Shown here: positions 31,150-37,127 of the stretch, one piece after another | Numbering within the stretch: position 1 is the first letter of the stretch | How the letters are laid out: the number at the start of each line of letters is the position of its first letter | Assembly (NCBI GenBank): GCA_951406725.2 | Contig: OX597830.1 | Coordinates: 67,518,001-67,582,000 of the forward strand | Source of the DNA: Octopus vulgaris | Taxonomy: Eukaryota | Reading direction: 5' to 3' | Length of the DNA stretch: 64,000 bases | The notes under the pieces: generated by a model | Told to the model about the DNA's origin: nothing | Seen by the model: the letters and a program-made list of their open reading frames with translations, nothing else | The model's database searches: none | Made by a program: the position numbers and the translations under genes

Positions 31150-33100
31150 TCTTAGTCGCTTGTTTCACATCGGATCCAGTTTCTGATTCTGATTAGAATC
31201 AGTGTGCAATGAATATGACTCAACAAAGCCGCAATACAACTCCAGAACTTCCTCGGCGATGACCACTAATCTCTCTAGCAAGATTCTCATGAAGATCTTC
31301 CCAAAGATGCTGAGAAGAGAGATGCTGTAACTGTATTCACAGATTGCTCAGTCACCTCTGTTGAAGACTGTGATGATAGTCACATTGTTAAGGTCTCCAG
31401 GAACTACTGCTGCTTCCCACATGCGTTGGATAAACCTATACAACTTGATCTTCACAGTTTGACAACCGTGAAGCAGGAGCTTCAGAACTATGTTGTCATG
31501 ACCAGGTGCTCCCCATTTCTTCATGCGTTTTAGAGCCTTTTCCAGCACAAGATAATTTAGAGGGAGTAACATCCAGTCTCAGATAGGATACAGGGGATAC
31601 TTCAGAGGAGGTCAATCATTGCAGTAGATGGCCGGTTGACAAGAGTATTCCTTCCATGTTTCAAGTGTGTCTTGATTGTCCATCAAAGGGGTTAATCTGG
31701 CGGTGGATATGAGTGTATTGTTTACTCTACTAGGAGAACCAACGATTCCCCTTTCCCCAGCATAGAAACGCCTGCCTAGGGTCTTTACTGTCTGCGAACA
31801 ACTGTATCTCCCCTGCTTTTGCTAGCCACCAGAGATTTTGGAGTTCATGGATCCTGCACTGGCATTGCTCCTTGGCCTACCAGAAGCATCGCAAGTGGGT
31901 TCACATTGAGAAATCCTATACCAGACGAAATTCTCTCTTCTGATCGATCAGCTTGGCAATATGGTCGTCATTTTGGTCAAACCAGTCTTAATGAGCGTGT
32001 TTGTAAAAGCCAGTTATTCCCCCAGGAGCTTTGGTGATCGTTTTGCCTAAATCAAACCAATATACCTCCACACTGTCCACTGCCCGTCAATGATAATGGT
32101 GGGGTACCTTCTTCAGAAAGTTTCATGAGGTGTGATGAGTGATCGCCCCAACATCGTAGGTCTTCAGTTTAGAAACAAAACCATCACAGTGTCCACTCTA
32201 TCTTTGTAGATACATTGCGATATGGAAGGTTTCGCAACTAAAACCTGTGCAGTCAATGATCCCTCCAGCAGTCCTCTGTGGCAGGGAGGCTGTGGTTCAT
32301 TGGTACGTTGCTCTCATCACAGGGTCAAGTGAGAAAGTAGTCCAGGTTGTGCCAGCACTTTTATCTTGGATGCTCTTACGTGGTCTTTTGCTGGTTGGGA
32401 AAATGTAAATAACCATAAGCTCATTCTCAGCGCATAAGCCAATGAACAGCGGTATGTCTGAGTTTCAGTTTCCCACATCCTGTTTTCCCAGAATTCCCGT
32501 CCAGTGTTCATTAGTTCATCGACCCTGGCATTAAAATCTCTCTTGGCTTGTCCTGTTGAGATTAGAGTATTACAAATCTATGATCTCATATCTAGAATCA
32601 AGGGTAGCAGCAGTAACTAGGATTAACGCAAGACGATTGTTCTTGAGGCACTCAATGATAGAGGTGGGAGACGGATTGTGTCTGTTCACTACGGAATTCT
32701 TCACAAAAACATGACCGAGGATTCACTGCTCTGTAAGATTTCTACCTTTACAGAAAAAGGTGTAAACCCTTCCTTCTTCACAAAGACTGCCAGGTAGGTT
32801 TGTGATGTCCACACTGTAAGGATTCAGTTCTCCGCTCAAACAAGCAGTGCACTGTTTGGGTCTGTCTGTGTCATCCAGAGCCAGGAGTGTGCGCACATTC
32901 CAACTTCTCACAAAAAAGAAAGTTTTTCTTTTTTGCTTTTGCTTCCACTGTAATGGGTTACCAATGGCCTTGGTAAGTCAGTCAAGGAAACGAATGGTGT
33001 CCAAAGTTTGCCCTAACTTTTCTAGAGGCATTCTTGTACGGTTGCACTGCAGTAATCCCGAGTAGGCTGACTCAACGACACCACACTTCATGGATAGAAA
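31150..33100 (-). mobile_element. RTE-clade LINE 5' half remnant (APE + start of RT)
   Basis: SWNVRTL, L.EEG..YTFF..G, APG.D.I..LL..G, ISLLSIFGKI. Confidence 0.75.
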
Positions 33101-33294
33101 AATCTTTACATAAGATCTGCCAGCATGTGGATGTCTTTGAATGGCTAAAATCTCATAAATTTAAATACTTGTAACTTCATTATTATTAATCTCTATAAAA
33201 AATGATAGCAATTTTTGTCATCAGCAGCATACAATAATACATCTTCAAGCAAGAATATGATACGGGTCAATGGAGTTGCAAAAAGGTTGTATCC

Positions 33295-33420
<126 letters not shown>

Positions 33421-33429
33421 ATATATAAA

Positions 33430-34213
33430 TGGAGTTAAACACAGGTGTTATTCAGATTATTTTACTTCCGACACGTTTCGAAGACATCACTGGTTTTATT
33501 CCAAAGGAATAAAATGGTGTAAAACAATGTAATCTTCTCTTCAGCAAAATGAAGAAATGAAACTCATCAATAAGACATTTTAACAGAAAATGATGGATAT
33601 GTAGAGTCATTAACTGAATGCTATAAAGTTTGTTTAAAAAAAACGTTATAGGATATAACGTCAAAGGTAGCCTATAGAAAGAGGAGAGATAAAGGAAAGA
33701 AAAACCAAATAAATGAGAAGTATATAACTATATGTATATTAAATAAAACTATATAGACTTGGAAAAGATATATCTAGTGAATTTGAAATGTAAGAAATTT
33801 AATGTTTAAATTATATATAATGATAGATATCACTTATATGAACTAAAGGTGTATTTCTGCCAATGTTTACATCAGTACGCATGCTCTATAATCGTGTTTA
33901 CAAGGGGACTTTTAGAAAAAAGAATAAAAAATAGTTCATAATTACAGAGAAGATAGAATTCCTTGCACTTGTCATAAGGTATCAAGATTGAGAGAATCAA
34001 CCAATCTAAATTAAATTGTTTACTGTGGTCTATTAGATCTCAAATTAATTAACTAAGCCCTGTTCTGTTATGTTTATTCCTATCCCTAAAAGTAGAGTAA
34101 TGATTAGAAATTCTTTTAGATAACTGAGAAGATGTGCTTCCTATATAAAAAAAATAATTCATTACCAGTAGTAATTTTACACTGGTATATTGAATTTTTA
34201 ATTTGTGTCTAAA
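33430..34213 (-). mobile_element. Second, decayed PLE 3' fragment (GIY-YIG + hammerhead), related to 1985-3645
   Basis: 33850-34200 aligns by eye with 2740-3085 (IYQC, YIGS.SSQLSKRISNHYSTF, CKHWQK). Confidence 0.8.
33461..33550 (-). ncRNA. Hammerhead motif in PLE 3' region
   Basis: Minus strand: CTGAAGA-GAAGA...TCTTC-GAAAC-GT-GTC-GGAAG. Stem I is partly decayed. Confidence 0.6.
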
Positions 34214-34337
34214 ATCTCGTTCAGAGATTTATTATTGCTTTCAGACCGTTTTTCGAAATCAGTGACAGTGGTTACTGGGAAAAACATTAAATAGATATTC
34301 GCAAACAGGTCTCTCCTCATCGAAAACCGGTGATTAC

Positions 34338-34382
34338 CGTGTGTTGACAAGAGACAATAATCTCGAAACTGCAGTCCATGCG
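34338..34382 (+). ncRNA. Minimal hammerhead with mutated core inside a unit bounded by 24-bp direct repeats
   Basis: CGTGTG-TTGACAA-GAGA-CAATAA-TCTC-GAAAC-TGCA-GTC-CATGCG. All three stems pair. Confidence 0.65.
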
Positions 34383-34595
34383 TATCACTTAGGTTTACGA
34401 GAGGGGATGACTTCCCTTTGCAAATATCATAAGGGCACAGAAATTGTGTCTAAAGCCAGCTGGAGACGATGATCTCCTGGGGCTAAAAAGCTACAGTAAC
34501 ACCCACCCCTAGTGGTTAGCCATATTGAGATGGCTAGTATACTTTACGTTGTCGAGCGCCTACTGTTTACATCTCGTTCAGAGATTTATTATTGT

Positions 34596-34596
34596 T

Positions 34597-34675
<79 letters not shown>

Positions 34676-34708
34676 ATATATTCTATATATATGTATACAT
34701 ATATATGT

Positions 34709-34775
<67 letters not shown>
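34596..34775. repeat. Long (TA)n microsatellite
   Basis: Seen directly. Confidence 0.9.
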
Positions 34776-34778
<3 letters not shown>

Positions 34779-35410
34779 CAAGGAACGGCCATAATAGGCC
34801 ATTCACCCACTAGAAATAACAGCCAAAAGCTTCAACCGCAAAACAACATCAATTCCGTAAACCAGGAGAAAATTAAAATTATATATATATATATGTAAAA
34901 TGAAGGGTAATACTTGTAGCACCAGCAGGTGAAAGATGGCAGTCAAAACGACTCAAAACCACCGTTTCGACTTGTACACAAGGATGAAATTAATACATAC
35001 ATGATATATGCGCCCACACAGCTACACCAAAGACCACAACCTCTGATACCATTGCTGCCGAATTCTTCCTCCAGCATTAACAGATACAAAGATCACTCAC
35101 ACATACATATAAACAGTTATTACCACTTACAACACATATGCACACACACGCAGTTACCACCACCCACATACACTCACACACTCAGTTACTGCTACACACA
35201 CATATACACACACAAACACATACACACATGCTATCACACACACGCATATACTTACACATACACATATATCCCTCCTTTTACACTCTCCTGTCTTAGAAAG
35301 AACTTTTTCTTTGTCCATCTCCTTCTGGTCATTCCAAAATGTAACTACATGTGAATTGTTGGTGATTTTTTTCTTCTGTCTTCCTTTTCTCTTGGACTTT
35401 CCTCTGTCTC

Positions 35411-35449
35411 CTGTTTCTGAAGAAGAGCTTTGCTCGAAATGTAAGACAG
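35411..35449 (+). ncRNA. Minimal hammerhead motif downstream of a CA-rich, PLE-like 3' region
   Basis: CTGTTT-CTGAAGA-A-GAGC-TTT-GCTC-GAAA-TG-TA-AGACAG. ACGT appears decayed to ATGT. Confidence 0.6.
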
Positions 35450-35838
35450 CCTTTTTTTCCTTCTGTGAGCATCTAAATAATACTTTGTATGTACCACGTT
35501 CTCGTGCATTGTTGTTTTTTCTTCTGATAATGATGATGATGATTACTTCATCTTAACAGATGATAGCCATCCCATCAACGCACACACAGTACCCCATCAC
35601 ATGGCAAAATCTTTCAATTGATGAACCCTCAGATGACCTTTTGGGGCCAGCTGCTAACTGACGGTATAAAACACAAGTGATAGATAATCAAATCTCTTTT
35701 ACGTCTTTGTCCTCTGGAACCTGATTCTGAAGGAATGTTTTTTATGAACCAGCATACTTATATTAAGTCTAGATATTATCTTACAAATTTTGTGACATGT
35801 TATACATTGTTAAAAGTGGCCAGGGTTCAAGATTATTA

Positions 35839-37127
35839 CGAGGGGCGTTCAATAAGTAATGCCCCTGACCCACTTCCCATAGTAGTAGAGCAACAAAACT
35901 CGGCACAGGTATTAGTCGTTTTCTACATAGGAACCACCCAGAGTTACGCATTTCTCCCATCGTTTGATGCAGCTCTGGATACCGTTTTTGTAGAAGACCC
36001 CAGCTTGGTCCTCCAGCCACGACGTGACTTCAGAAATCAAGGCTGCATCATCTGGTAAACGCTTTCCTTTCAAAAACAACTTCATGGGTGGAAAGAGGTG
36101 AAAATCAGAGGGTGCAAGATCAGGAGAGTAGGGGGATGGGGAGAAGTTCATAGCCGCACGCCTGTGCTTTTGATCTGGCGACACGCGAGTTGTGGACCGG
36201 AGCGTTGTCCTGCAGGAGGAGGATGCCTTTGCTGATCTTGCCCCGCCTCTTGATTTTGATAGCTTCTCTTAATTTCCTCAAAAGTGAAGCATAATAGGCT
36301 CCTGTAATTGTGGTACCCTTTGCCAGAAAATCTGTCACCACTACTCCGTCCTGGTCCCAGAAGACTGTGAGCGTGACCTTGCCAGCGGAGGGCTGCACCC
36401 TTGCCTTCTTTGGAGGAGGTGAGTCACGGCGCATCTACTGCATTGACTGGGCTTTGGTCTCTGGATCATAGTGATGGACCCAGGTTTCATCCTGTGTGAT
36501 CAGTCTTTTGAAATATTTTGACTCATCTTCATGGCACATCTCCAAATTTATCCTCGAGCATTCGACGCGTTCTTGCTTCTGGAAAGGTGTGAGCAACCTG
36601 GGAATCCATCTGGCAGACACCTTTTGCATATGTAAATGGTCATGAATGATAGTTTCCACAGACCCGGTACTAATCTTGACTTCATGGGCTATTTGGCGAA
36701 TAGTTATGCGTCGATCTTCCAAAATGGCAGCCTCAACTTGACGGACAGATGCCTCATCAATGGCAGAAGGGGTGACCAGATCTGGGAGCTGTTTCCACAG
36801 AGTTCTGACCAAGTTTGAATTCACGATGCCAGCGTTTTACAAGGTCATATGATGGGGCATCATCACCATAAGTTACTTTCATTTCATCAAAAGTTTCCCG
36901 TGGTGTGCGTCCTTTCAAATACAAAAACCGGATCACTGCTCGGCACTCAACATGCTCCATTTCACACTTGACTCAGTTCAAACACCTGTAAATCAGAAAC
37001 CACAATTAGTTCAGAGCTGTAATTTCCCACTTAATCTATAAAGATATAAATAATTGCACATGCAAAATTTCAGCTAAATCAAACAACTGCAATTGGGTCA
37101 GGGGCATTACTTATTGAACGCCCCTCG
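35839..37127 (-). mobile_element. Full-length mariner element (1289 bp), irritans-like
   Basis: Perfect 34-bp TIRs CGAGGGGCGTTCAATAAGTAATGCCCCTGACCCA; TA duplication at 35837-38 and 37128-29. Confidence 0.97.
35912..36960 (-). pseudogene. Mariner DD34D-type transposase with two frameshifts and one stop
   Basis: WIPRLL, ITQDETWVHHY, QDNAPVH and PYSPDLAPSDFHLF are spread over four ORFs; TAG at 36435-37. Confidence 0.95.

Follow-up and report, generated by a model that had tools for sequence, protein, structure and literature searches.

Results

A hammerhead-bearing unit close to a PLE fragment

The window (the whole stretch of Octopus vulgaris DNA analysed here, 64,000 nt of contig OX597830.1) contains a short unit that is bounded by a direct repeat and lies close to a fragment of a Penelope-type element (PLE). 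This raises the question of what kind of element the unit is, which enzyme inserted it, and whether its neighbour had a part in the insertion. A preliminary description, made from the letters of the window, had proposed one monomer-plus of a non-LTR retrozyme copied from a circular or tandem RNA, with a long target-site duplication as the alternative, and had taken the junction with the PLE as a hint of co-mobilisation. The oppositely oriented GIY-YIG fragment is present, and so is the (TA)n that follows the unit; this proposal drew on both. The unit and its immediate surroundings comprise the following features:

34214..34597, + strand: retrozyme arm made up of a 357-bp lap and 27 further nt; it stops at the family's distal fixed end, site B
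34214..34240, + strand: lap overlap, copy 1 (24-mer plus 3 nt), holding a conserved 5-bp hairpin
34571..34597, + strand: lap overlap, copy 2, ending at site B
34330..34388, + strand: type I hammerhead; its core has U3-A8, its loop III is palindromic, and the cut is predicted after 34376
34551..34597, + strand: 47-nt tail, from fixed end A (34550) to fixed end B (34597)
34598..34776, no strand assigned: (TA)n target tract, adjoining the arm on its 3′ side

The exact 24-bp direct repeat was found as described, at 34214-34237 and 34571-34594, with a period of 357. The match stretches to 27 nt with one mismatch, and the end of the element is therefore placed at 34597. On the circular unit the longest ATG-started frame has 36 aa and the longest stop-free frame 79 aa; in agreement with the earlier view of the segment, the unit is non-coding, and it is without LTR features.

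The hammerhead is made up of stem I, the core UUGACAA, a 4-bp stem II, GAAA, a one-pair stem III and a UGCA loop. Folding compared to shuffled sequences gave z = −4.5 for the whole unit and only z = −1.4 for the hammerhead by itself, and the Rfam scan of the window returned zero hammerhead hits. The palindromic TGCA loop stands as first described, but the core that had been called decayed is a covarying one. We obtained 85 motif hits, left 20 of them unparsed and counted the other 65, in which positions 3 and 8 formed U-A in 47 and C-G in 15, with a mismatch in the other 3. When 33 copies from across the lineages were aligned, pair 3:8 was Watson-Crick or wobble in every copy (15 C-G, 13 U-A, 5 U-G). 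Double changes occurred in 14 of 48 named pairs versus 8.6 in shuffles, a value that gives support and not a probability, since the sequences are related. They fell mostly in stems I-II and in two downstream hairpins, and the helices round both fixed ends were conserved with zero double changes. U3-A8 is a known natural variant in schistosome PLE hammerheads (PMC4209133). The core of the unit is not decayed: U3-A8 is a compensatory variant of C3-G8, and activity is predicted for it. Over lineages about 30% apart, the hammerhead has been retained through compensatory change.

The unit belongs to a family with many copies

A search of the assembly (2.8 Gb, 227 contigs) gave 773 exact matches to the 24-mer genome-wide and 0 for the reversed control, so that the unit is not single-copy. 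A first look with the unit itself yielded 4138 candidates, of which 40 were scored. Copies are tandem and circularly permuted, with 357-bp laps in tandem and arms of up to 864 nt, and they hold the 24-mer internally to the laps. It is therefore not a target-site duplication; an exact direct repeat does flank the unit, but 773 copies, their position within tandem laps and the absence of the 24-mer from the PLE sequence leave that reading a negligible probability. The monomer-plus of a retrozyme with a circular or tandem template is supported by these copies.

Non-LTR retrozymes are recognised by tandem units of about 170-400 nt (PMC7229834). Judged by its sequence, through which it is known here, the unit has the characters of a metazoan non-LTR retrozyme and is a young copy of an abundant genome-wide family. 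It is covered by assembled contigs of four runs; that these are RNA runs is a guess, and the coverage speaks neither for nor against expression. The family includes a very young sister lineage of 360 bp, with a CCGAUGA core, a CAUG loop and near-identical copies on many chromosomes, whose arms reach 8 laps (L003:1-1459; L273-L292).

Six copies with identical boundaries have common flanks, and thus are segmental duplicates of one event. The composite of PLE fragment and unit lies inside this segmental duplication (window 32555-36254 compared to L002-L006), which has at least six copies, five on C17 and one on C60. In two of the duplicates (L002 and L005) the right (TA)n holds a sequence that we take to be LINE-like, and one 360-bp sister array was placed in the (TA)n that ends a duplicate of the window locus. 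Further downstream, the window has a 3′ stub at 35290-35525 (+ strand) from a second PLE-like family that is abundant and bears a hammerhead (4192 candidates at first look), and the broken frames at 35912-36836 (− strand) resemble a mariner transposase in their motifs.

Copies end at two fixed sites and are often two-armed

To describe the insertions, we drew two samples. The first comes from the first 100 of the 24-mer matches listed, from which 79 independent loci were obtained; 8 ids were dropped (6 already-sampled places, 2 duplicates). These loci comprised 56 with two arms head-to-head, 22 with a single arm and 1 complex locus. Of their 134 arms, 117 ended at one of two sites, and 5′ ends were scattered. 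Site A corresponds to unit 326-339 (mode 337) and site B to unit 22-32 (mode 26-27), with a spacing of 47 nt. The two-arm loci had the ends A+B in 41 cases, A+A in 0 and B+B in 0, and in 15 an end lay elsewhere. The second sample, 46 further loci chosen by the site-A motif, contained 30 two-arm loci (22 A+B, 0 A+A, 0 B+B, 8 with another end). Taken together, head-to-head inverted arms were present in 86 of 125 loci, and all pairs with both ends at fixed sites were A+B (63/63). The window copy is without an inverted arm. For the 360-bp sister lineage, where the loci were long top matches and thus a non-random choice, 20 long arrays gave 17 A+B, 1 B+B, 1 with B and another end, and 1 single arm.

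Many of these ends adjoin (TA)n: 62 of 117 A/B ends in sample 1, and nearly every end in the 360-bp sister lineage; of the older 3′ ends, roughly half are without it. Of 14 single arms whose 3′ end is in (TA)n, 6 also have a non-TA 5′ flank. Two loci that are 0.7 Mb apart (L062 and L064) have an inversion junction in common (unit 232 to 149), but their flanks differ and the A and B ends are swapped between the arms.

A footprint of the PLE type, with an inverted arm, a tail at one end and an AT-rich or (TA)n target, is present in the family, as read from its insertions. The mirror-image arm pairs ending at fixed points suggest that a Penelope-type enzyme inserts the family.

Comparison to resident PLEs

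PLE insertions can consist of an inverted, 5′-truncated copy with a tail at one end (PMC8557442). In the anole PLE the tail lies between two internal start sites, which are used on both nicked strands (PMC11167929), and published PLE tails have 30-40 bp. Our search for a partner covered two Hydra families, the stubs of the third hammerhead-bearing family and one Neptune-type family. The resident young Hydra-clade PLE, with open frames of 778 aa, was tallied by eye at 29 loci, and the 14 scorable ones gave 12 A+B, 2 B+B and 0 A+A. Its tail is about 150 nt long, versus 47 nt for the retrozyme. Copies of this young family are 97-99% identical (L150, L152-L154, L243-L246), and their tail exceeds the published 30-40 bp.

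The marks of Hydra-clade PLEs are DKT, RWK, and CxxC plus CxH in the C-terminal endonuclease (PMC8557442 section 11). In the 778-aa sister ORF we found RWL, DKT and, around the conserved E and N, CLLC and CKH. The Hydra placement is by motifs; a CxCX5C linker was not recognised in the Hydra-type ORFs, and Pfam assigned no family to the Hydra proteins. A further family (L323-L352), which from its motifs we take to be a Neptune-type PLE, has a weak GIY-YIG match; at 30 loci it showed a single fixed end, the 3′ one, in (TA)n, and a second was not seen.

Since the layout of the retrozyme family is the published PLE layout and is also seen in the resident Hydra PLE, the partner enzyme is likely a PLE, perhaps of the Hydra type. 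Against this count the Hydra tail of about 150 nt, the single fixed end of the Neptune-type family and the lack of sequence in common between the unit and the PLE ends examined. PLE stubs themselves combine the inverted-plus-tail layout with hammerheads (PMC8557442, PMC4209133), and the unit might be merely such a stub, namely the terminal repeat (pLTR) of an autonomous PLE. The long arms, however, wrap into more unit laps, and none was seen entering an ORF. Within 300 nt upstream, 38 single arms and the window copy have no sequence in common; together with the lack of any ATG-started frame above 36 aa, this argues against the unit being the terminal repeat of any coding element. Comparison of the unit to the PLE ends examined (73 loci plus 30 loci) revealed no common sequence beyond nested copies. 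With these data we regard a pLTR stub as very improbable.

Arms run through the ribozyme cut site

An arm length beyond that possible from a self-cleaved linear monomer was found in 93 of 192 arms, and only 3 of 192 had their 5′ end at the cut site (unit 160-168). As the arms run through the cut site, they were copied from a circle or from a multimer that had stayed uncut. Within a locus, both arms tend toward the same lineage: 27 of 63 arm pairs were within the lowest 5% of cross-locus distances. In the older family, however, only 9 of 63 arm pairs were as close mutually as to the nearest other locus, and the tandem copies L009 and L024 join laps that are 8-9% apart; both observations weigh against a circle as the template. 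Six young arrays (L273, L281-L284, L292), with arms of 7-8 near-identical laps, carry identical variants lap after lap in both arms. One such lap-repeated variant was tested and is present at 23 places, at 8 of them in both arms; it is therefore the mark of a sub-lineage and no proof of a single circle. Three other arrays (L274, L275, L279) have variants in some laps only, e.g., in laps 1 and 4 or in laps 2 and 4, which suggests template switching, multimeric circles or later unequal exchange.

PLE-type insertion could also start from linear read-through transcripts of tandem arrays, in which case circles would be a by-product and the hammerhead would be unneeded. Arms that cross the cut site, the existence of hetero-lap dimers and the many possible source arrays of the tested variant are compatible with this, and the anole PLE used mainly uncut RNA in vitro (PMC11167929). 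However, the young arrays, with 7-8 near-identical laps and matching variants on each side of the inversion, are obtained more simply by going round one circle, and the compensatory maintenance of the hammerhead over such distant lineages is a second point against a linear template, which we consider rather unlikely. We tentatively prefer that a PLE dimer copies one retrozyme circle from two fixed sites, one per nicked strand, and by rolling round it produces the multi-lap mirror arms, a proposal to which we give somewhat less than an even chance.

A putative promoter within the unit

Two features of the window copy bear on transcription:

34258..34263, + strand: ATCAGT motif, likely a U-snRNA-type proximal promoter core by its position 61 nt before the putative start
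34315..34319, + strand: putative transcription start region (unit 102-106), placed by U2-like spacing and an adjoining repeat

Nine of the ten U2 genes that we examined carry ATCAGT/C at −57 to −61. In the window copy ATCAGT lies 61 nt ahead of unit position 106, and in most other copies the distance is 56-62 nt. The 3′ end of a repeat abuts +1 of the tenth U2 gene (L318) and replaces its upstream sequence; the same repeat abuts unit 102-105 in L021 (891-1243) and L203 (1734-2118). A local alignment between the unit and the DNA upstream of U2 genes gave at best p = 0.05 and was not significant. An snRNA-type promoter in the unit is likely, judged from the spacing of a 6-nt motif and from two insertions.

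A source copy would need this promoter and two hammerheads, by arithmetic about 650-700 nt. The window copy has 384 nt, a single hammerhead and nothing past site B, and for this reason it is probably a dead end that is unable to serve as a source of circles.

The retrozyme arm is younger than the neighbouring PLE stump

The following features lie on the other side of the unit:

33428..34204, − strand: 5′-truncated Hydra-clade PLE stump with the end of the GIY-YIG ORF and the 3′ UTR; it ends in (TA)n at the proximal fixed end of its family
33470..33544, − strand: the PLE's own minimal hammerhead motif
33298..33427, no strand assigned: (CA)n(TA)n tract that follows the stump on its 3′ side
34205..34213, + strand: 9-nt junction patch, equal to unit 233-241 (window 34446-34454)

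The unit had been placed exactly at the truncation point of the PLE. This needs correction, as nine non-PLE bases (34205-34213) lie between them, and other copies of the PLE family match only from base 10 of the fragment. The identity of the 9-nt patch with the unit has a chance expectation of 0.004, and unit 232-233 is a recurrent 5′ end (6/192). Fillers of at least 5 nt are present at 20 of 86 arm junctions, some of them merely diverged unit sequence.

For an age test, we took the majority state of the six duplicates, i.e., the state before the local duplication, and compared it to a PLE consensus from 24 copies and a retrozyme subfamily consensus from 28 laps. The PLE arm differed from its consensus at 29 of 776 positions and the retrozyme arm at 1 of 357 (Fisher p = 2e-4). 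Two nonsense changes in the PLE arm are common to the six duplicates and are thus older than the duplication. All 24 sampled PLE copies are 3.9-7.2% from their own consensus, so that this family was probably inactive by the time the retrozyme arrived. Among 24 non-duplicates, with 40 of 3750 candidates scored, none was a close sister of the PLE arm, the nearest being 6.9% away. As the PLE arm is far older than the retrozyme arm, a later landing of the retrozyme is the better reading, and most likely it inserted beside or into an old Hydra-clade stump.

We had first favoured a one-event chimera, in which one strand is primed on PLE RNA (site A) and the other on retrozyme RNA (site B); the age test and the shared stops count against it. 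Such an event would give the A+B head-to-head geometry, with both outer ends at (TA)n and no TA at the junction, and would fit a junction patch copied from the unit. It is difficult to reconcile with 3.7% private changes and two stops in the PLE arm while the retrozyme arm has 0.3%, with the lack of a close PLE-arm sister in a probably inactive family, and with the lack of a second example in 37 single arms. We therefore think a single chimeric event improbable; the variant in which the transcript came from an already decayed PLE is about equally doubtful.

Both PLE and retrozyme use (TA)n targets, and elsewhere retrozyme copies occupy (TA)n at PLE or retrozyme ends (L003, L175, L323). A PLE head-to-head junction without intervening (TA)n was present in 0 of 37 other single arms; the layout of the window junction is uncommon under sequential insertion too. 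A tblastn search with 35 Hydra frames, run against the window and the single-arm flanks (38 arms), found L144, which is a retrozyme nested within a decayed PLE, plus a 21-aa match in L086. The opposite flanks of 37 single arms contained no hammerhead motif, and in this comparison PLE clades other than Hydra were covered by the hammerhead scan alone. The flagged junction is probably ordinary nesting at a common (TA)n target. Of the suggested co-mobilisation, mobilisation of the PLE type is backed by the anatomy of the family, but the junction does not support it, as the PLE fragment is much older than the retrozyme arm.

In summary, we are fairly confident that the window holds a young, one-armed retrozyme that a PLE enzyme likely wrote into (TA)n from a fixed site of a likely circular RNA, in all likelihood beside an older stump.

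Discussion

The cycle that we propose would begin with long tandem copies transcribed from the snRNA-type promoter. Two successive hammerheads would cut the transcript, and ligation would close the product into a circle (about 357 nt). Both strands of an AT-rich target may then be nicked by a PLE enzyme, with each nick priming a cDNA, one at site A and the other at site B. For the window copy, the cDNA from site B would have run for more than one lap, which explains the apparent direct repeat, and would have been joined to the PLE stump via the 9-nt patch copied from the unit itself. If a PLE dimer does copy single circles from both sites, the insertions are a genomic record of it and would be direct evidence for the long-proposed cycle in which retrozymes are PLE-driven and templated by circles, with an snRNA-type promoter feeding it.

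The value of the locus lies in a testable mechanism at the level of the family and not in the flagged junction. The family supplies exact predicted start sites, A and B, and a young, near-identical sister lineage; candidate intact PLE ORFs are present in the same genome. In combination, these make a direct in vitro test of the mechanism possible with the existing PLE assay. In the open-licence literature we found no paper on a two-site, two-arm footprint in retrozymes, nor on octopus retrozymes.

Mobilisation of retrozymes by PLEs was proposed by Cervera and de la Pena 2020 (PMC7229834), and Li, Clavereau and Pollet 2026 (10.64898/2026.07.22.740005) treat retrozymes as PLE-mobilised, non-autonomous derivatives, with vertebrate co-occurrence and pLTR similarity as evidence. 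The enzyme that moves animal retrozymes and the use of the circle as template are both proposed, not shown, in the Discussion of PMC7229834 and in 10.64898/2026.07.22.740005. Unlike in the latter, the evidence in octopus is insertion anatomy, and pLTR similarity was not found in the PLE ends examined.

Compared to EN+ PLE insertions (Craig et al. 2021, PMC8557442; Frangieh et al. 2024, PMC11167929), the retrozyme copies share 5′ truncation, an inverted 5′ copy, a tail at one end, two internal start sites and AT-rich or (TA)n targets. They differ from the EN+ PLEs of these reports in that the retrozyme has no ORF and its tail has 47 nt versus 30-40, and in that copies go round the unit repeatedly, with as many as 8 laps in the young sister lineage. 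Both the neighbouring stump and the intact family that is its sister share DKT, the RW motif, CxxC and CxH with the Hydra-clade PLEs of PMC8557442 (section 11), and are Hydra-clade-like in having a hammerhead of their own and (TA)n targets; the octopus tail of about 150 nt sets them apart from the Hydra-clade PLEs published there.

The retrozymes described in PMC7229834 differ from the octopus family in two respects: the youngest octopus lineage has the U3-A8 core, and most octopus copies are short inverted insertions whose two arms stop at two fixed sites, an anatomy that we did not find mentioned there. In other respects the family closely resembles metazoan non-LTR retrozymes as given in that source, with non-coding tandem units (about 357 bp here, 350-390-bp repeats in mussel), one type I hammerhead per unit with a short stem III and a palindromic loop, and thousands of dispersed copies in a genome where PLEs co-occur.
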